61,239 bases of DNA from Dehalococcoidia bacterium UBA1123 (GTDB lineage: Bacteria; Chloroflexota; Dehalococcoidia; Lucifugimonadales; UBA1123): positions 1 to 61,239 of the forward strand of contig DCAW01000079.1 of NCBI GenBank assembly GCA_002313895.1, given 5' to 3'. Of this stretch, positions 13,743 to 55,524 are shown one piece after another. The position numbers and the translations under genes are program-made. The first letter of the stretch is position 1; every line of letters begins with the position of its first letter. The notes beneath the pieces are model-generated. The model ran no database searches, had not been told where the DNA came from, and saw only the letters and a program-made list of their open reading frames with translations.

Positions 13743-14807
13743 CTATTTCCAAACGTCTATTAGCACGCCGCTGTCGAGATCAGACTGGTCGACTATTTCA
13801 CCGATCACGGCACGGGTCTGAACTCCAGACGACTCAAGCTCTGACAACAACTCCGCCGCTTTGTCCGACTGGACGGAGATCAAGAGACCGCCAGAGGTTT
13901 GGGCATCAGCCAGCAATATCGGAGCGTTGTCATACAGCCCGTCAGCAAACGCGGTGTATTTTTCGGCGCTGTTGAGATTTCGGTGGGTTCCGCCTGGCGC
14001 AATACCGGAGTCAACCAGATCGAACACGCCATCCATGAACGGAATGTCGCCGAACCTAAGTCTGGCGCCGACGCCGCTGGCGACGGTCATGCCGTGAAGG
14101 TGACCCAGGAGACCAAATCCGGTGACGTCAGTGCAGGCGTTCACTCCAACACGCATCATCGCCTCGGCGGCGGCTTTGTTGAGAGTTGCCATGATGTCGA
14201 TAGCGTCAGCCAGCAATTGTTCTGCGATCTTTTGCTGCTTGCCTGCCGTAGTTATTATGCCCATGCCCAGTGGTTTGGTCAGGACGAGAGTGTCTCCGGG
14301 CTTGGCGTCGGCGTTCGAGACTTGATTCCCGGGTTTCACGATACCGGTGACGGCCATTCCATATTTGGGTTCCGCGTCATCGACCGTGTGGCCCCCCACG
14401 ATCAGGACTCCAGCCTCAGCCGCTTTGTCTGCCCCGCCTTTCAGGATATTTCCCAAGATGTCTTTGGGCAGGCCGACAGGAAATCCGACGATGTTCAGGG
14501 CGAGAATCGGCTTTCCTCCCATCGCGTAGACATCGCTCAGGGCGTTGGCGGCCGCGATCCGCCCGAAATCGGTAGGGTCGTCTACGACCGGCGGGAAGAA
14601 ATCCACTGTCTGAATCAACGCCAAGTCGTCGTTCATCCGATAGACAGCGGCGTCATCTGCGGTGTTGATTCCGACCAACAGGTTAGGATCGGTGACTGGT
14701 GGTAGCTGACGCAGTACCTGCGCCAGGTCCTCTGGACTAAATTTGGCCGCTCAACCAGCGCAAGATGCAAGCTCTGTGAGGCGGATGTGCTCGTGAATCT
14801 GAGTCAA
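13743..14807 (-). CDS. selD: Selenide, water dikinase (selenophosphate synthetase) with in-frame UGA (Sec) at codon 19
   Basis: Tracked ORF 13743..14678 lacks the N-terminus. Reading upstream in the same frame gives MTQIHEHIRLTELASCAG-U(TGA 14751-14753)-AAKFSPEDLAQVLRQLPPVTDPNLLVGINTADDAAVY. This aligns with E. coli SelD ...IRLTQYSHGAGCGCKISP...DPNLLVG..DDAAVY, placing U on catalytic Cys17. TTG start at 14807. Confidence 0.85.
14706..14726 (-). promoter_or_regulatory. Candidate bacterial SECIS hairpin of selD
   Basis: CUGGCGCAG-GUA-CUGCGUCAG has a 9-bp stem with one G.U pair. It starts 25 nt after the UGA, and its apical loop contains GU about 34-36 nt downstream. Confidence 0.45.
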
Positions 14808-14866
14808 TGGTCCCTCGCTTTGGTTTAACTCATGCAGTGATCGATTGCCGACAATTATAGCAAAGC

Positions 14867-33586: not shown

Positions 33587-33883
33587 TTATCTCAAATCAG
33601 CGATAGTGACTCCACCGTTTCCTTCTGCTGGACTCGCCGCGTAGTGCCGAGTTACCAGCGGATGTTTCGACAGGTATTCAGCCACCGCGCCTTTCATGGT
33701 TCCTGTGCCTTTCCCGTGGATGACCCGCACCCGATGCAATCCGGCCATGGATGCGTCGTTCAGATATTTGTCCAACTTTGACAACGCAGGTCGAACCTTC
33801 ATCTGCCGCAGGTGGACCTCGGCTGACATCGACGCCGTCCTCATCAGCCTTGATGGTTGGTCGTCTCGCCTTCGTGAGGTCAC
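33587..33883 (-). CDS. Smr (small MutS-related) domain protein
   Basis: ...VHLRQMKVRPALSKLDKYLNDASMAGLHRVRVIHGKGTGTMKGAV...GNGGVTIADL. The GTG start overlaps the selA stop (GTGA). Confidence 0.75.
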   Translation of the reverse strand: MTSRRRDDQPSRLMRTASMSAEVHLRQMKVRPALSKLDKYLNDASMAGLHRVRVIHGKGTGTMKGAVAEYLSKHPLVTRHYAASPAEGNGGVTIADLR

Positions 33884-35277
33884 GATGCGGCGTTCGGTTG
33901 AGCAATGTTGTTCAGCGCTTCCCGCAAGTCGCTCTCGTCGCCCGGAAGCACGGTTCTAGGGTCTAGAATAACCGCGTCGTCCTCGATGCGGGCCACGATA
34001 GGCGGGTTGTTGTCCCTCAGACGTTGGGCCATCTTTTCGGCTTCCCCAGGCTGTAGGGATGGGATTCGGGTCACCCAGGTCGGGAGGGTCTCTCCAGGCA
34101 GGCTGCCTCCGCCGATCGCGGACCGGGAAGCGACCGAGACTCCGTTCTGAGCGAAACTGGCCCAGGATTCGGATTTTCGTCGCAGTTCTTCTTCTGTTGC
34201 CGATATCATCCGCCAAATAGGGATTTTTGATGTGGCCTCATCGCGGATGTAATGAAGGACTGTGGCGGCCAGCGCCGCCATGCTCATCTTGTCGATCCTG
34301 ACGGCCCGCGCCAGTGGGTGGCTCGACACTCTGGCAACCGCTTCTTTTTTGCCGATGATGATTCCCGCCTGCGGCCCCCCCAACAGTTTGTCGCCAGAGA
34401 AAAACCCAAGCTCAACGCCGGCGGAAACGCTCTGTTGAGGCATAGGCTCGGGAGCCAACCCATAAGGCACGGTGTCCAGTAGACAACCGCTTCCGAGATC
34501 GTGGAGGACAGGAACGCCTCGACGGTGTCCGACCTCGACCAACTCCTCAAGGGTCGGGGCGTTCGTGAAACCGATCACCTTGAAATTGGATGCGTGGACA
34601 GACAGGATCGCGCCAGTGTTCTCGGTGATCGCCGCATCGAAATCGCGCGCGTATGTGCGGTTGGTGGTCCCGACCTCGACCAGAGTTGCTCCGCTCTGTC
34701 GCAGGACGTCGGGGATTCGGAACCCGCCGCCGATTTCGACGGCCTCGCCCCTCGATACGACTACTTCTTTGCCAACAGCGAACGTCGCCAGAGCCAACAT
34801 GATGGCTGATGCGTTGTTGTTCACGACCATTGCGGCCTCGGCTCCAGTCACCTGACTCATCAATTGAGACATGTGAGATTGCCGAGAGCCGCGCTTGCCG
34901 GTTTCCAGGTCCATCTCCAGGTCGCTGTATCCTGAGGCGGCGCGGTGCATGGCTTGAATCGAATCGTCACTGAGCGGGGCGCGACCAAGATTGGTATGCA
35001 AGATAACGCCGGTGGCATTAATCACGCGCTCTGGCCAGGCGCGCCATCGTTTGCTGGCCTGGTGTTCGATTTCAAAGACCAGGGAAGGGAGATCCGGGGG
35101 ATCGGCCCCTTCTGACACCGCCGCCCTGATTTCTTCGAGATTTTGTCTAATGAGGTCGAGAACCGCATCTCTGGAGTGCGCTTCGATCAGCTGAACGATG
35201 GCGTCTTCCTCAAGAATACGGTTCACGGGAGGGATTGCTCTGAAACCTGATGTCATACTCACAGCGCTCTGATCCAA
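33880..35277 (-). CDS. selA: L-seryl-tRNA(Sec) selenium transferase
   Basis: VINATGVILHTNLGRAPLS and the PLP-lysine motif FFSGDKLLGGPQAGIIIGKK are SelA hallmarks. TTG 35277 and ATG 35256 are possible starts. Confidence 0.9.
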   Translation of the reverse strand: MDQSAVSMTSGFRAIPPVNRILEEDAIVQLIEAHSRDAVLDLIRQNLEEIRAAVSEGADPPDLPSLVFEIEHQASKRWRAWPERVINATGVILHTNLGRAPLSDDSIQAMHRAASGYSDLEMDLETGKRGSRQSHMSQLMSQVTGAEAAMVVNNNASAIMLALATFAVGKEVVVSRGEAVEIGGGFRIPDVLRQSGATLVEVGTTNRTYARDFDAAITENTGAILSVHASNFKVIGFTNAPTLEELVEVGHRRGVPVLHDLGSGCLLDTVPYGLAPEPMPQQSVSAGVELGFFSGDKLLGGPQAGIIIGKKEAVARVSSHPLARAVRIDKMSMAALAATVLHYIRDEATSKIPIWRMISATEEELRRKSESWASFAQNGVSVASRSAIGGGSLPGETLPTWVTRIPSLQPGEAEKMAQRLRDNNPPIVARIEDDAVILDPRTVLPGDESDLREALNNIAQPNAAS

Positions 35278-49104: not shown

Positions 49105-49548
49105 TTGACGCATTTGCATCTGGTAGTAGATGGGCACGGCGGCGACGCCAAAGCCCTGCAGGACAGTGACCTCATATACACTTTTTTGGACACGCTTCCA
49201 GACCAGATTGGCATGACCAAAATGATTCCTCCGCAAGTGTACACCTACCACGGTCAGAAGCCTCAGGACTGGGGTGTTTCAGGATTCGTATTGATCGCCG
49301 AAAGCCACATCAGCGTGCATACGTTCCCTGATCGTCAACATATCAACGTCGATATTTTCTCGTGCAAATCCTTCGATGCCGACGAATGCGTGAAGGCCGT
49401 GGAAACAGCGTTTGGTTTGACTCGCGTCAAGACCCAAATACTGGAGCGCGGCCTGGAGTACATGAACGACCATGAAGCGTATTCTGGGATGGTGAGAGAG
49501 CGAATTGGCATAGCCCCGCCTACGAACATTGGGCATGCACGAACTTAG
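49105..49548 (+). CDS. speH: S-adenosylmethionine decarboxylase proenzyme (class 1, pyruvoyl)
   Basis: ...GFVLIAESHISVHTFPDRQHINVDIFSCK contains the E-S cleavage site motif. TTG start. Confidence 0.8.
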   Translation: MTHLHLVVDGHGGDAKALQDSDLIYTFLDTLPDQIGMTKMIPPQVYTYHGQKPQDWGVSGFVLIAESHISVHTFPDRQHINVDIFSCKSFDADECVKAVETAFGLTRVKTQILERGLEYMNDHEAYSGMVRERIGIAPPTNIGHART

Positions 49549-50455
49549 AGGCGGGCAGTCTGGACTTGGCCCATTCCAATGGGACACATTTCTTGACACG
49601 CCTCCTGATGAAGCCCGCTACGAGGATGCCGGATTCGTGGTGCTTTCAATCCCTTTCGACGGCACCACGTCATTCAGGTCTGGCACCCGCGACGGGCCTT
49701 CGGCAATTATTGCGGCGTCGGGGCAACTCGAAGATTACGACATCGAACTGGGCGTCGATATATCCCTAGCCGGGATACACACGGTGCCAGAGTTGGTCCC
49801 GAATCTCAGTTCGATGGATGCCCTGTTTGGTCAGGTGGATCGGTTGACGACCCAGGTCATATCAGACGGAAAAATCCCGGCTCTGCTTGGCGGGGAGCAC
49901 ACTGTCTCCATCGGAGCGGTCACCGCGTTGGCGCGTCGGTATCCTGACATTGCGGTGCTGTATCTGGATGCTCACGGAGACTTACGGGACGAATACATGG
50001 GCACGCGTTGGGGACATGCCTCAGTGGCTCGAAGATTGATGGAGATTTGTCCAGTCACCCACGCAGGTGTTCGCAGCCTCAGCGCTGAGGAGCATCGATT
50101 CATCGCAGATGAAAGCCTGAACGTGAATCTCTGGCCGCCAAATTCTTCGATGGATGAGTACGCCCGCGCGATAATCGACGATCTGCCTTCTACGATCTAT
50201 GTGAGCATAGACCTCGATGTTTTGGACCCTTCGATCATGGCTGCAGTCGGAACGCCCGAACCAGACGGAATGTTGTGGCAAGACCTGGCTCACGTCCTGC
50301 GCCTGGTTTGCGAGGCGAAGCGAGTAGTCGGGTTCGATCTCGTAGAGCTTGCGCCCGCCGAGGGGCCAGAGGCGTGCGCTTACACTGCGGCCAAGCTGAC
50401 ATACAAGTTGATGGGTTATATTTCAACTTTGATGCCCCGGCTAGGCGCGTGCTAG
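49535..50455 (+). CDS. speB: Agmatinase (arginase/ureohydrolase family)
   Basis: LGGEHTVS, LDAHGDL, and SIDLDVLDP manganese-site motifs. Adjacent to speH. Start is ATG 49535 or TTG 49529. Confidence 0.8.
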   Translation: MHELRGGQSGLGPFQWDTFLDTPPDEARYEDAGFVVLSIPFDGTTSFRSGTRDGPSAIIAASGQLEDYDIELGVDISLAGIHTVPELVPNLSSMDALFGQVDRLTTQVISDGKIPALLGGEHTVSIGAVTALARRYPDIAVLYLDAHGDLRDEYMGTRWGHASVARRLMEICPVTHAGVRSLSAEEHRFIADESLNVNLWPPNSSMDEYARAIIDDLPSTIYVSIDLDVLDPSIMAAVGTPEPDGMLWQDLAHVLRLVCEAKRVVGFDLVELAPAEGPEACAYTAAKLTYKLMGYISTLMPRLGAC

Positions 50456-50529
50456 AATACTTTTGATTACGATGATGAGCCAATGCGCAGTTCATATCCA
50501 CGAGCCACAAAACACGAAAGGTAACGGCC

Positions 50530-51723
50530 ATGGGCCTATCTGAGCGCCTGATTTACATGGATCATGCTGCCACAACTGCAGTTAGGCCAGAGGCGTTGGA
50601 GGCCATGCTGCCATACTTCGGCGTCAGCTTCGGCAATCCTTCAAGCATTTACACGCTCGCTCAAGAAGCCCGTAACGCTGTCGATGATGCCAGGCAAACA
50701 ATCGCCGGATTGATTGGGTGCCGCATCAGTGAGTTGATTTTCACCAGCGGAGGCACTGAGTCGGACAATACAGCGCTGAAGGGCGTCGCATTCGCGTTGA
50801 GAAACGTTGGCAACCATATCATCACAACCGCCATCGAACATCACGCGATACTGCACACCTGCCACCAGTTGGAACAGTTTGGGTTCGACGTGACCTACCT
50901 GCCGGTGGACAGGCACGGATTGGTGGATCCGGACGATGTCGCGAAGGCTATCACGGATCGCACGATACTCGTCAGCGTGATGCTGGCAAACAACGAGATT
51001 GGGACCATCGAGCCAGTGGCGGCAATCGCCCGGACCGTGAAGCAAGAAGCCCGCCGTCTCGACAGGAACATACTAATGCACACGGACGCTGTTCAAGGGG
51101 CTGGATTCCTGGACCTAAATGTCCGAGAATTGGGCGTTGATCTCATGAGCCTGTCGGCCCACAAGTTTCACGGACCAAAAGGCGTTGGCGTGCTTTATGT
51201 CAAGCGGGGAACTCCCTTTGAGCCTCAGATGATGGGCGGCGGCCAGGAACGCGAGCGGCGGTCTGGCACGGAGAATGTTCCGGGAATCGTCGGCATGGCG
51301 GAAGCGTTTCGGCTGGCTTGTCAGGAACGTGAGACGACGGCGGCTCGATGCGTTGCGATGCGAGACAGGATCATAGAGGGCCTCCAGGATCGCGTGGAAC
51401 ATGCTCACCTCAATGGGCATCCCGTCGAGAGGCTCCCGAACAATGTAAATATCTCTTTCGAGGCCGTAGAGGGTGAGCCTATACTACTGGGCCTCGACTT
51501 TGCTGGGATCAGCGCTTCCAGCGGAAGCGCGTGTTCGTCGGCCTCGCTCGAACCTTCTCATGTGTTGCTGGCTATCGGTCTTGCCGCAGAACTGGCGCAG
51601 GGGAGTGTTCGTATTACTCTCGGTAAAGACAATACCGACGAAGAGGTTGATTATATGCTGTCGGTGATACCAGACCTTGTTAATCGACTGAGGGCCATGC
51701 CCTCGCTATCAGGTGTTCAGTAA
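50530..51723 (+). CDS. Cysteine desulfurase (NifS/IscS family)
   Basis: The PLP-lysine motif [12 protein letters not shown] and the active-site loop SSGSACSS. Confidence 0.88.
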
Positions 51724-51725
51724 AT

Positions 51726-52343
51726 ATGATTCGATTGTTGTCGACGAAACTTCGCGATTCGGCCCATTATGTAAATCGCGAACGCTCAACAAACCAGCAT
51801 ACCCTCAAGGCTTCCAAGGCGTCCGTTTTGACATTAGTCCTCGTGTTGATGGCGATGATGGTCGTGGCCTGCAACAGCGCGCCAGATGTGCATCTTGCGC
51901 GGGGACGAAGCATAGAAATTCAGGTGAGCAGGCCTGTGGTCAAGACCAAAATGTCATTTCTCGATGATGAAGGAAAGCATCGTGTCGTGCGTCCCAGAGC
52001 GTCAAATCGCCAGCTTGCGATGGTCGAAATCGCTGTTGTGAACCGCACAAGCACGGTCATGCCTTTATTGATTGACGAAGAAGCTGCAGAACTTGGTGAC
52101 AGGCGCGGCGAACGCATCGAGGCGCTCGATCCGTTCGTTAATTCCCGTGTAGTTGAGGCGGCTGGTCCTAAAGAGGATGAGTTTGCTCCGTTGCTCTGGG
52201 GCGAAGTTCAATTGGACAGAGATTTCCAGGTGAAGGGGTGGATGATTTTCGACGTTCCAAAAGGTCTCACACTGGGCTCGGTATTCTGGAACGAGATTGA
52301 AGAGATCATCGCTGACTATGTTAACTATTTCGATCGCGGTTAA
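51726..52343 (+). CDS. Putative lipoprotein, DUF4352-like
   Basis: Signal peptide plus lipobox VVAC. The beta-rich C-terminus with ...GWMIFDVPKG is reminiscent of DUF4352, by recollection. Confidence 0.5.
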   Translation: MIRLLSTKLRDSAHYVNRERSTNQHTLKASKASVLTLVLVLMAMMVVACNSAPDVHLARGRSIEIQVSRPVVKTKMSFLDDEGKHRVVRPRASNRQLAMVEIAVVNRTSTVMPLLIDEEAAELGDRRGERIEALDPFVNSRVVEAAGPKEDEFAPLLWGEVQLDRDFQVKGWMIFDVPKGLTLGSVFWNEIEEIIADYVNYFDRG

Positions 52344-52426
52344 AAAACCTACACGATTGATGCCGCAACGAATATAATGAGTGACAGAATCGTCTCTCTT
52401 GTATTTGAACCCCATTGGAGGAACTA

Positions 52427-52756
52427 ATGGCTCACCCTATTGATATCACCGACGACAGCTTCAACGCAGAAGTAATCCAATCTGACACCCCGGTGTTGGT
52501 GGACTTTTGGGCTGAATGGTGTGGCCCGTGCAAAATGATTGCGCCAATCGTCGAGGAACTGGCCGAAGAATTTGGCGACAAGATCAAATTCACGAAACTT
52601 GATGTGGACACCAACCCGCAGTCGGCCACGAACTTTGGGATTCGTGGCATCCCCACCCTGCTCATTTTCAATGGCGGCAAGCCTGTTGAGACGGTGGTGG
52701 GCGCAGTGCCCAAGTCCGTCCTCAAAAAGAAGCTCGACGCGGCTCTGGCTAAGTAA
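52427..52756 (+). CDS. trxA: Thioredoxin
   Basis: VLVDFWAEWCGPCKMIAP active site. About 109 aa. ATG 52427 follows GGAGGA. Confidence 0.9.
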   Translation: MAHPIDITDDSFNAEVIQSDTPVLVDFWAEWCGPCKMIAPIVEELAEEFGDKIKFTKLDVDTNPQSATNFGIRGIPTLLIFNGGKPVETVVGAVPKSVLKKKLDAALAK

Positions 52757-52768
52757 CCTGAGTAATTA

Positions 52769-52802
52769 GATACGGGAGGCTCGCTGATGGGCCTCCCGTA
52801 TC
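52769..52802 (+). terminator. Hairpin immediately after trxA, with a weak U-tract
   Basis: GAUACGGGAGGC-(10 nt)-GCCUCCCGUAUC is a 12-bp perfect stem, followed by UGUUAU. Confidence 0.45.
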
Positions 52803-52841
52803 TGTTATACTGACTCACGCACTCCCAATTTGAGTGACAGG

Positions 52842-52872
52842 CATGATGCGGTAATCCGTGTCATGTTTTTTT
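52842..52872 (+). terminator. Rho-independent terminator upstream of selC
   Basis: CAUGAUGCGG-UAAU-CCGUGUCAUG (10 bp, two G.U pairs) followed by U7. Confidence 0.65.
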
Positions 52873-52951
52873 AGCGCCAATAATTTGTCGATAGACCTTA
52901 GCGACTAACTTTGAATGTCTCGTCTGAGGCGTTCTGTCATGACATGCACAC

Positions 52952-53049
52952 GGGAGCGGATGGGGCCTGGTGGCTCCTGCGGTCTTCAACACCGTTGGCG
53001 GCAACCCTGCGGTTGGCGCGGTGGGTTCGACTCCCTCTCGCTCCCGCCA
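52952..53049 (+). tRNA. selC: tRNA-Sec (anticodon UCA), CCA encoded
   Basis: Hand-folded 98-nt tRNA. It has an 8-bp acceptor GGGAGCGG/UCGCUCCC (the last pair is G.U) and a 6-bp D stem GGGGCC/GGCUCC with the 4-nt loop UGGU. The anticodon arm is GCGGU-CUUCAAC-ACCGU (UCA). A long variable arm (CGGCAACC-CUGC-GGUUGGCG), T loop UUCGACU, discriminator G and CCA complete it. The layout parallels E. coli selC. The tracked ORFs 52911..53141 and 52970..53182 are spurious. Confidence 0.85.
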
Positions 53050-53412
53050 GACGTTTGTTCCTCATAGCGTCCGTTTGTATGCGCCTTCGTTCGCGCCGCC
53101 CCCGGCTTGCGTCGAAACGCGTCTGGCGGTCGCGGATCTGAGCAAGAAGGTTCTATTGCCACACAAGCCTTGTCTTATTTAGGCCGACAAGTCTGCCCAC
53201 ATATCACTGAAATCAGGCCGTCCGAACTCCATAAAACCTGATACCCTCTGCATGGGAACACGGAGTAAGGGGCCAAACAGATTTGGTGGTTTCCTGCGTC
53301 GAGTTATTGGGGCTAACTCGTGTTATTTATGAGCCCATGTTGTCCATATTCTGAATACGGAGCCTGAAATCATCATATGTTTGAAGAAGATGAACCGATG
53401 GAGGAGTGAGCC

Positions 53413-53697
53413 ATGGCGAATCTGATATCCAACGATCCTAGAGAGATAGTGGCAGAACATCTCGAAACGCTCAGAGCATATGCCACTAAAGTCCTGGTCA
53501 ACGACGAGCAGCTAACCGAGGAAGAATTGGCTGATAAGGCTGACCGATTTGAGGAGCTTCAGACGCTGTGCGCTTCCTTCGACGTTACTGAGAAAGAGAT
53601 TGTCACCCTTGTCCTGAAACAGATGATGCGTGAACCGAAGAGATGCGGTTGTCCAACCTGCCTCGCGCGAAAGGGGTTTAGTGACGGAAAAGCTTAA
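53413..53697 (+). CDS. Hypothetical acidic helical protein with a C-terminal Cys cluster
   Basis: 94 aa. ATG is preceded by GGAGGAG. The C-terminal KRCGCPTCLARKG has C-x-C-x2-C. No family recognised. Confidence 0.5.
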   Translation: MANLISNDPREIVAEHLETLRAYATKVLVNDEQLTEEELADKADRFEELQTLCASFDVTEKEIVTLVLKQMMREPKRCGCPTCLARKGFSDGKA

Positions 53698-53857
53698 ATC
53701 GGATTACCCTGGTTCTCGCGGTCACGATATTGCTGTGGAACAGTAGCGACGTAGGACGGATCGGCCTTGCAGCCGAATGAATATATCGTTCGTATGAGTC
53801 ACGCGTTGCGTGAGTGGCAAAATGTCTGGGCGGAAACGATCAGGCGGGCCACAGAAT

Positions 53858-53897
53858 AACTGAATAGAGGCGGCAATTCTGCCGCCTCTATTCAGTT
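53858..53897. terminator. Perfect 18-bp inverted repeat between convergent genes (bidirectional terminator candidate)
   Basis: AACTGAATAGAGGCGGCA-ATTC-TGCCGCCTCTATTCAGTT lies between the 53413..53697 (+) gene and the UGSC gene (-). Confidence 0.55.
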
Positions 53898-53917
53898 CCG
53901 AGAGCGTTCGTCGAGGA

Positions 53918-54463
53918 TTAGCTCTTCGCCAACAAAATCCTCAGCACATCAGGAGCAGCCTGTGCAGCTTTTTCGCGGATTCCGGCTTCGTCGAGGCTTC
54001 CCAAAGGGTGGGGAAGGACAACGTACGGGTAGTCAGGGATTCCGCCGAGTTTCGCCATCGCGTCTGCGCTCGTTACGAACGGCTCTGTGCAGATTACTGC
54101 GGTGGGAACGTCGCTGCGCTCGAAGGTGATTCCGTCGTGCACACTGCACGACGAGCAGGACCCTCAATCGCCGGAGGAGGTGATGATTACGTCGCACTCC
54201 GCCGCCATCTCCTCAGCCAGGGGAGGTGGGCACGGCCTGGAGGCATTGCCTTTGTTTCGCGCCATAATCGCTTTGAACTCGTATCGATCTGCCAGCACAT
54301 CGCTGATGGCTTCGAGCAACTCCACCGAGTTGCGCTTGCCGTTAGCCAGCAGTCCGATAACCTTGCCATCCAGCGTGTCGGGCCTTTGAGCCACAACTGC
54401 GTGCGCTGGGATGGGTTCTACGGTTGGGTCCAGCACGGCCAACCTGGTTGCGGTCGTCATCAT
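53918..54463 (-). CDS. UGSC-motif selenoprotein (181 aa, Sec at codon 100 encoded by TGA 54164-54166)
   Basis: Tracked ORFs 54164..54463 and 53918..54142 are in the same frame, separated by one TGA plus 7 sense codons. The read-through is ...AECDVIITSSGD-U-GSCSSCSVHDGITFERSDVPTAVICTEPF.... ATG 54463 follows GGGAGG. A SECIS-like hairpin starts 10 nt after the UGA. selC, selA and selD are all in the window. Confidence 0.75.
54133..54153 (-). promoter_or_regulatory. Candidate bacterial SECIS hairpin of the UGSC gene
   Basis: CGUCGUGCA-GUG-UGCACGACG is a perfect 9-bp stem. It starts at +11 after the UGA, with a GU-containing apical loop at about +20 to +24. Confidence 0.6.
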
Positions 54464-54501
54464 CGAACCTCCCTAGAATGATTCAGAAGTCTTCGTGGTT
54501 G

Positions 54502-55524
54502 TTAAAACTGAATCCGTTTCGTGACCGAGCGAGTCCCATTACCCGCGGTCCACAACGGTATTATACTAGAAAACGCTCCGGCTGCGCCGCCTGCAACCAG
54601 CACATTGATATTTTCAGGTTTGGATGCCGTTGAGATCATCTGAGAACTGTCGTCGCTCTCTGGAAGAACCTGACCCTCCGCTCTCCATTCGGCCTCTGTG
54701 CGTTGGGCAAGCTCGAACAACGTCTGTTTCACCTGGTTTTTGGTCCACCCGGCGGCTCTGAAATGTCCGATATGCTCAGGGCAAAGCACGATGTTCAACT
54801 CTCCGTGTCTGGCGCCGATGGCGAACATCCCGTCTCGGAAGCTGTTCAGGATATCCCGCGGCGACTCGCTCTCGTGGTTCGCAACCTGAATCCCCGACAG
54901 CGCAGCGAATATTGTCACCGCGCTTTCGTTTTCGGATAGACCACGCTCGACGTGCAGCGGTTCCCACGGACTCACATTGGTATCCTCGGCCATGCACCAG
55001 GTGTACTTGCCGGGATGGCCCAGAGTTGCCTTGTCGATCTCCCCAGAAGAAGAGCCGGTGGCGTTGATAATTACGAGCCTGATGGCGCGCCCGATGGTAG
55101 CGTTTGCGCGATGGCCCGGGCCGAACACGCTCACGCCGGAGTTGATGCCGATTTCGGAGACCACCGGCCCACCCACTACCATTAGAACCGCCGCGCCCAT
55201 TGTGCTGGCCGTGATCGCGTGGAGATTAAATTCCGGTTCGCACATCGCTTCAACAGCCGTGGCGACGACAGGGAAGTATTCTGGACGACACCCGGCCATC
55301 ACTGCGTTGACCGCGACCTTTTCGGCGGTTATCACGCGTCCTTTCGTTGGCTCGGCGCCGATAACATCGGAGGGCGAACGATGGGCCGCGTCAAGAAACT
55401 CACGCACTAGGTCTTGAGTAGGCGGGACGATTGGAAGACCGTCGGTCCAACCTCGGCCAAAGTAGTCTTCTATAACTTGTGAGGCGTCGTCAAATTCCAG
55501 TATTCGAGATGTCAAGTTGGTCAT
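54502..55524 (-). CDS. Conserved-looking protein of unknown function, upstream operon partner of the UGSC selenoprotein
   Basis: 340-aa ORF with no competing ORF and globular composition. Segments include GRGWTDGLPIVPPT, KVAVNAVMAGCRPEYFP, GPGHRANATIGRAIRL and LGHPGKYTWCMAED. A 38-nt gap separates it from the UGSC start. I cannot assign a family. Confidence 0.7.
   Translation of the reverse strand: MTNLTSRILEFDDASQVIEDYFGRGWTDGLPIVPPTQDLVREFLDAAHRSPSDVIGAEPTKGRVITAEKVAVNAVMAGCRPEYFPVVATAVEAMCEPEFNLHAITASTMGAAVLMVVGGPVVSEIGINSGVSVFGPGHRANATIGRAIRLVIINATGSSSGEIDKATLGHPGKYTWCMAEDTNVSPWEPLHVERGLSENESAVTIFAALSGIQVANHESESPRDILNSFRDGMFAIGARHGELNIVLCPEHIGHFRAAGWTKNQVKQTLFELAQRTEAEWRAEGQVLPESDDSSQMISTASKPENINVLVAGGAAGAFSSIIPLWTAGNGTRSVTKRIQF

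Follow-up and report, generated by a model that had tools for sequence, protein, structure and literature searches.

The window, by which we mean the whole 61,239-nt stretch of DNA analysed here, is contig C14 of a 3.4-Mb, 196-contig assembly (89% complete) from a bacterium of the SAR202 cluster (Dehalococcoidia, Chloroflexota). A predicted gene for the selenocysteine tRNA, selC, occupies positions 52952–53049 of its forward strand, within a neighbourhood that extends from 49529 to 55524. Four co-oriented genes lie upstream of the tRNA, encoding an agmatinase, a NifS-type cysteine desulfurase, a 205-aa protein (p205) and a thioredoxin (trxA, 52415–52756, + strand; TIGR01068, 129 bits). About 0.9 kb downstream begins a convergent gene for a putative selenoprotein of the UGSC family (53918–54463, − strand; NF041046, 144.5 bits against a cut-off of 125), which has an in-frame UGA at 54164–54166 and behind which sits the gene for a 340-aa protein. 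Profile searches matched neither the 205-aa nor the 340-aa neighbour to any family.

Identification of the tRNA

The tRNA sequence, GGGAGCGGAUGGGGCCUGGUGGCUCCUGCGGUCUUCAACACCGUUGGCGGCAACCCUGCGGUUGGCGCGGUGGGUUCGACUCCCUCUCGCUCCCGCCA, is 98 nt long and includes an encoded CCA. The original prediction had named this interval as selC and pointed to ARAGORN and the Rfam covariance model as ways of checking it, and the two methods agree. ARAGORN reports a tRNA-SeC with anticodon tca whose ends fall exactly at 52952 and 53049 on the + strand, and the Rfam tRNA-Sec family RF01852 matches the same interval with 67.6 bits (E = 1.2e-11), for a gathering score of 47. No other isotype is preferred; the tRNA-Sec model outscores the general tRNA model RF00005 and is the sole member of the tRNA clan kept at 52952–53049 after clan competition. 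A search of the genome with RF01852 recovers a single selC, the runner-up match being a tRNA-Ser(GCU) at 44.4 bits. The whole-tRNA free-energy z-score is only −1.82, a weak value of the kind usual for G+C-rich tRNAs.

The gene is overlapped by two open reading frames, 52911–53141 (76 aa) and 52970–53182 (70 aa), for which a Pfam search found no matching family; we regard both as spurious, as had been proposed. The accompanying description of the tRNA as unannotated and hidden beneath these frames holds in part: the frames are there, but the description applies to a track of open reading frames and not to the genome.

Cloverleaf architecture

Each structural element that the original prediction had listed, from the acceptor stem to the encoded CCA, is present at the expected place in the ARAGORN cloverleaf. 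The 5′ strand of the acceptor stem (52952–52959) forms 8 base pairs with 53038–53045, the last of which is G·U; the 3′ strand continues to 53049 through the discriminator G (53046) and CCA (53047–53049). The D arm (52962–52977) has a 6-bp stem, GGGGCC/GGCUCC, closed by the 4-nt loop UGGU, and the anticodon arm (52979–52995) a 5-bp stem and the 7-nt loop CUUCAAC, with UCA at 52986–52988. ARAGORN and folding together delineate a long variable arm of about 25 nt (52996–53020), in which 3 and 5 base pairs flank a G·G opposition and enclose the 4-nt loop CUGC. The T arm (53021–53037), placed by the cloverleaf and by alignment, combines a 5-bp stem, GUGGG/CCCUC, in which the second pair is U·U, with the loop UUCGACU.

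The rules of identity described for bacterial tRNA-Sec call for a 13-bp branch in the 8/5 arrangement and a D arm suited to SelA (PMC6267555). The present tRNA fits this arrangement, with 8 acceptor pairs (one G·U) and 5 T-stem pairs (one U·U) making up a 13-bp branch. We also considered the 9/4 register that the Rfam alignment forces on the sequence and set it aside, as it creates several non-standard pairs and the 8/5 register of ARAGORN fits better. The D arm of 6 bp and 4 nt that serves as the SelA recognition element of bacterial tRNA-Sec is present, as are the long variable arm and the discriminator G73 that provide identity for SerRS. At tRNA position 39 (52990), which ends the anticodon loop and corresponds to canonical position 38, the window has C, as do two genomes of the same family (G003 and G007) and the closest relative (L041); the remaining orthologues examined, and E. 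coli, have A.

Conservation and covariation

To follow the structure through evolution, 14 distinct orthologues from the same order were aligned and their pairs counted on the 8/5 structure. Standard pairs fill 95.7% of the cells, as compared with 50–57% when the 3′ partners are slid by 1–3 columns, and covariation scores 0.434, where the slid registers reach no more than 0.092; none of 500 shuffles reached the observed pairing or covariation values. Compensatory changes on both sides occur in 16 of the 32 pairs. They are most abundant in the variable arm, where all 8 pairs have them, followed by the D stem and the anticodon stem (3 pairs each, with 100% of cells paired in both) and the acceptor stem (2 pairs, 98.2% of cells paired). 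In a second alignment, of the tRNA with 195 nt upstream and 150 nt downstream in five close relatives, the conserved block runs from G1 to A98 exactly and the flanks are essentially unalignable. Conservation that stops at the ends of the tRNA, together with compensatory changes within it, indicates selection on the RNA and not on either overlapping reading frame.

The selC sequence is identical in G003 and G007 and nearly identical in further genera; of 41 genomes of the order, 39 have an RF01852 match that exceeds the gathering score. Across the phylum, 104 of the 151 genomes sampled have a tRNA-Sec, and none was detected in the remaining 47. The discriminator is G in 40 of 43 distinct sequences, the other 3 reflecting poor trimming of the ends by our script. 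One genome, G007, also holds a second, different tRNA-SeC(tca) of 61.6 bits (locus L154, G007:C64:2941-3032); its contig is 4.8 kb long in a metagenome-assembled genome with 6% contamination, and it could be either a second copy or a mis-binned contig.

The U·U pair of the T stem

A U·U mismatch in the T stem had been flagged in the original prediction as a possible weakness of the fold. The mismatch is real, and it leaves the fold standing. It joins U71 and U85 counted along the tRNA (U50·U64), at the second pair of the T stem, and recurs in 13 of the 14 distinct orthologues, the other having A–U. Within the SAR202 order the stem thus reads GUGGG/CCCUC, with G–C followed by U·U, in 13 of 14 distinct sequences, whereas most other Chloroflexota sampled have GUGGG/CCCAU, with G·U followed by U–A. 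Since the U·U columns hold A–U in one orthologue and U–A in other Chloroflexota, the two bases lie opposite one another in a helix, and the SAR202 order has the mismatch as a fixed trait. The last acceptor pair varies as well, with non-standard combinations (GG, GA and UC) in 10 of 43 distinct sequences.

In E. coli tRNA-Sec, the antideterminants against EF-Tu have been assigned to the last acceptor pair and the first two T-stem pairs (Rudinger et al. 1996, as cited in PMC6267555). The G·U at the last acceptor pair of the present tRNA and the U·U at its second T-stem pair both fall within this three-pair region. By analogy with E. coli, G·U and U·U probably help to keep the tRNA off EF-Tu.

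Selenocysteine machinery and predicted target genes

The window and the rest of the assembly supply the proteins that would act with this tRNA. A gene for L-seryl-tRNA(Sec) selenium transferase, selA, which would use the selC product as its substrate, lies at 33880–35277 (− strand; TIGR00474, 542.8 bits against a cut-off of 267.9). The selenophosphate synthetase gene selD is at 13743–14840 (− strand, start approximate) and matches TIGR00476 with 392.9 bits when its UGA is read as U. It contains a single in-frame TGA, at 14751–14753, in the motif SCAGUAAKF, where U falls at what we take to be the catalytic Cys/Sec position (compare GAGCGCK, Cys17, in E. coli SelD). Owing to this in-frame UGA, a track of open reading frames would show selD as split or truncated.

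The selB gene is found in two pieces. Its N-terminal 273 aa lie at C184:1-819 (−; locus L008; 286.7 bits) and run off the start of that contig, and its C-terminal 355 aa lie at C51:1-1068 (+; locus L013), running in from the contig start. As both pieces end at contig ends and sum to 628 aa, the split is most likely a break of the assembly inside the gene, rather than a broken gene, and on this evidence we take selB to be intact. On its predicted gene content, the genome has a complete selenocysteine system, with selA, selB and selD in addition to selC.

Minimum-free-energy folding predicts hairpins downstream of the UGA in both UGA-containing genes, in each of which the codon is at a known selenocysteine position: a 9-bp hairpin about 27 nt downstream in selD, and a strong hairpin 11 nt after the codon in the UGSC gene. 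Both sit where a bacterial SECIS element would be expected. Earlier publications (PMC2398784, PMC9312934) have dealt with the UGSC family and with marine selenoproteomes. A literature search combining SAR202 with selenocysteine returned nothing relevant, and the main text of PMC5029168 mentions neither Chloroflexi nor selC.

A recurrent genomic neighbourhood

The relatives' loci were fetched through the upstream NifS-like protein, giving 80 loci from different species; the relatives found in this way are SAR202-cluster, Dehalococcoidia or Chloroflexota metagenome-assembled genomes. A tRNA-Sec gene lies 0.4–3.3 kb downstream of the nifS homologue on the same strand in 39 of the 80. Among these 39, trxA is found between nifS and selC in 33, directly upstream of selC in most, and a convergent UGSC gene follows selC in 13, with the 340-aa partner in 11 of those 13. 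Between selC and the UGSC gene of the window there is also a 94-aa open reading frame (53413–53697, +) that has no family match and is conserved in three related loci, at 86%, 38% and 45% identity.

The selC gene of E. coli is a well-known site of insertion of genomic islands, and we looked for an island here. A search of the window for the 26-nt 3′ end of the tRNA, allowing up to 3 mismatches, gave no second copy, profile searches yielded no integrase-family match, and the downstream genes recur in relatives; a selC-associated island was rejected on these grounds.

Transcription of selC

The spacer between trxA and selC is 195 nt long in the window and contains two hairpins. The first, a 13-bp hairpin directly after trxA (52770–52801, +; −24.1 kcal/mol, z = −4.85), has a poor U tract and is shared with the closest relative, L041. 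The second, at about 52839–52872 (+), resembles an intrinsic terminator (−16.7 kcal/mol, z = −3.39) and, with its tract of seven U, lies 80 nt before selC. It had been proposed that a strong terminator precedes the tRNA gene, and this hairpin bears the proposal out, though as a feature particular to this genome; none of the five close relatives in the alignment has it, and a simple consensus scan for terminators did not list it.

No sigma-70-like promoter was found in 52500–53500 by a scan built on the E. coli consensus, from which Chloroflexota promoters may differ, and alignment of the upstream regions of five relatives gave no conserved upstream motif. By eye, a weak TTGAAT-N17-TGTCAT is discernible at 52912–52940. 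On the other side of the gene, the 3′ end of the tRNA with its CCA forms a perfect 10-bp inverted repeat with the trailer 66 nt downstream, CCGCCAGACG (53044–53053) and CGTCTGGCGG (53120–53129). This repeat was set aside, as the trailer folds no better than shuffled sequences (z = −1.39) and is not conserved.

Proposed pathway and alternative readings

With ARAGORN and the Rfam covariance model in agreement, and with covariation, the genome's machinery and its selenoprotein genes adding support, we put the probability that 52952–53049 is the single functional selC of this SAR202-cluster bacterium at about 0.96, judged from sequence. On the established bacterial pathway, the selC transcript would be trimmed to the 98-nt tRNA with its CCA already encoded, and SerRS would charge it with serine by way of the long variable arm and the discriminator G. 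SelA, recognizing the 8-bp acceptor stem and the D arm of 6 bp and 4 nt, would then turn Ser-tRNA(Sec) into Sec-tRNA(Sec) using selenophosphate made by SelD. SelB, rather than EF-Tu, would bring the product to an in-frame UGA that precedes a SECIS hairpin, and two such target codons are predicted within the window, in selD and the UGSC gene.

Alternative readings bear either on the identity of the tRNA or on its transcription. RF01852 does cross-match tRNA-Ser at 44–47 bits, and a related genome, G010, holds a tRNA-Sec-like gene with anticodon UAA, so that a class II tRNA (Ser or Leu) or a relative resembling an allo-tRNA might have been mis-scored as tRNA-Sec. This is next to impossible given the anticodon UCA, the branch of 13 bp (8/5) and not 12 bp, the 6-bp D stem with its 4-nt loop, a score 20 bits over the gathering score, the lead of the tRNA-Sec model over RF00005, and a genome that needs a decoder of UGA for selD and UGSC. 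We consider it very improbable, too, that this is a relic selC in decay, left in a lineage whose use of selenocysteine is being lost. The T-stem mismatch, a selB that is not found as one intact gene and the 47 of 151 genomes of the phylum without tRNA-Sec would all accord with decay, but the sequence is unchanged in G003 and G007 and almost so in further genera while its flanks are randomized, and the mismatch itself is fixed across the order. Further, selA is intact, selD and UGSC retain in-frame UGA codons at the expected active-site positions, and the pieces of selB stop at contig ends and together reach 628 aa, which fits a break in the assembly.

The remaining alternative opposes only the inference of the original prediction that selC probably has its own promoter, and not the call of tRNA-Sec. 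It holds that selC is no independent unit, that it is reached by read-through from a nifS–p205–trxA operon and cut from the 3′ end of the transcript, and that the hairpins of the spacer are partial terminators or elements of processing or stability. The order of genes speaks for it, with selC co-oriented downstream of a nifS homologue in 39 of 80 loci and trxA upstream in 33 of the 39, as do the short spacers: in a survey of 40 loci, that of the window among them, selC begins less than 600 nt after the stop of trxA or p205 in 36 and less than 80 nt after it in 18 (median distance 84.5 nt), and 27 of the 36 short spacers lack a hairpin with a U tract. The scan of 52500–53500, with 0 sigma-70-like promoters, points the same way. 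Against it, a 195-nt spacer with a canonical hairpin and U7 lying 80 nt before selC should block most read-through in the window, and the promoters of Chloroflexota may deviate from the E. coli consensus that was scanned; there is also the weak TTGAAT-N17-TGTCAT. We consider read-through possible but less likely than not for this genome, for which an own promoter of selC is plausible; in many relatives, an own promoter seems no more likely than co-transcription with trxA. A broader proposal, which we think unlikely as a whole, is that the SAR202 selC belongs to a conserved selenium-handling locus extending from agmatinase to UGSC and its 340-aa partner, in which release of the tRNA from the 3′ end of a nifS–trxA transcript would couple selenocysteine decoding to selenium delivery and redox state, with U50·U64 acting as a lineage-specific antideterminant against EF-Tu.

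Significance

The identification of selC removes two spurious open reading frames from the annotation and licenses the in-frame UGA codons of selD and UGSC to be read as selenocysteine, rather than as the stops of pseudogenes. It is a correct but ordinary annotation, one that any tRNA finder makes, and its value is limited to correct annotation. Because the use of selenocysteine is widespread in the phylum (104 of 151 genomes sampled), the tRNA itself touches no open question. Of minor interest are the order-wide U·U in the antideterminant region and the conserved nifS–trxA–selC–UGSC neighbourhood, neither of which changes the classification.

Comparison with known systems

The closest point of reference is selC of E. 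coli K-12 (b3658; NC_000913.3, 3836222–3836316), which has the same 8-bp acceptor stem, 5-bp T stem and 6-bp D stem with a 4-nt loop. The two genes are also alike in a UCA anticodon within a CUUCAAN loop, a long variable arm, an identical T loop (UUCGACU), the discriminator G and an encoded CCA. They differ in length (98 nt in the window and 95 nt in E. coli) and are identical at 52 of 98 aligned columns. The first two pairs of the T stem are G–C and U·U in the window (GUGGG/CCCUC), as compared with G·U and C–G in E. coli (GCAGG/CCUGU); the last acceptor pair is G·U in place of C–G, and position 38 is C in place of A. Unlike E. coli selC, the gene of the window is not adjoined by an island or integrase. 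A blastn search of the window tRNA against 5,426 E. coli genomes gave no selC match, because the primary sequences have diverged too far.

A second comparison is with the allo-tRNAs, class II tRNAs resembling tRNA-Sec that are described as having 12-bp acceptor branches (Mukai et al. 2017, as cited in PMC6267555). They share with the window tRNA a long variable arm and a SelA-type D arm; given its 13-bp 8/5 branch and its UCA anticodon, the window tRNA is not an allo-tRNA. A possible allo-tRNA was seen only in the relative G010, as an 84-nt tRNA-Sec-like gene (locus L153, G010:C1:2197293-2197466; RF01852, 64.8 bits) with a short variable arm and the loop CUUAAAA, anticodon UAA. On the same strand, 16 nt past this gene, lies a tRNA with an 8-nt anticodon loop (ARAGORN 'tRNA-??? 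(ggca)'; RF00005, 58.9 bits).

Finally, RF01852 members in other Chloroflexota have both family and architecture in common with the selC of the window. The distinction is confined to detail in the T stem, in which those members mostly have G·U then U–A at pairs 1 and 2, whereas the SAR202 order has G–C then U·U.
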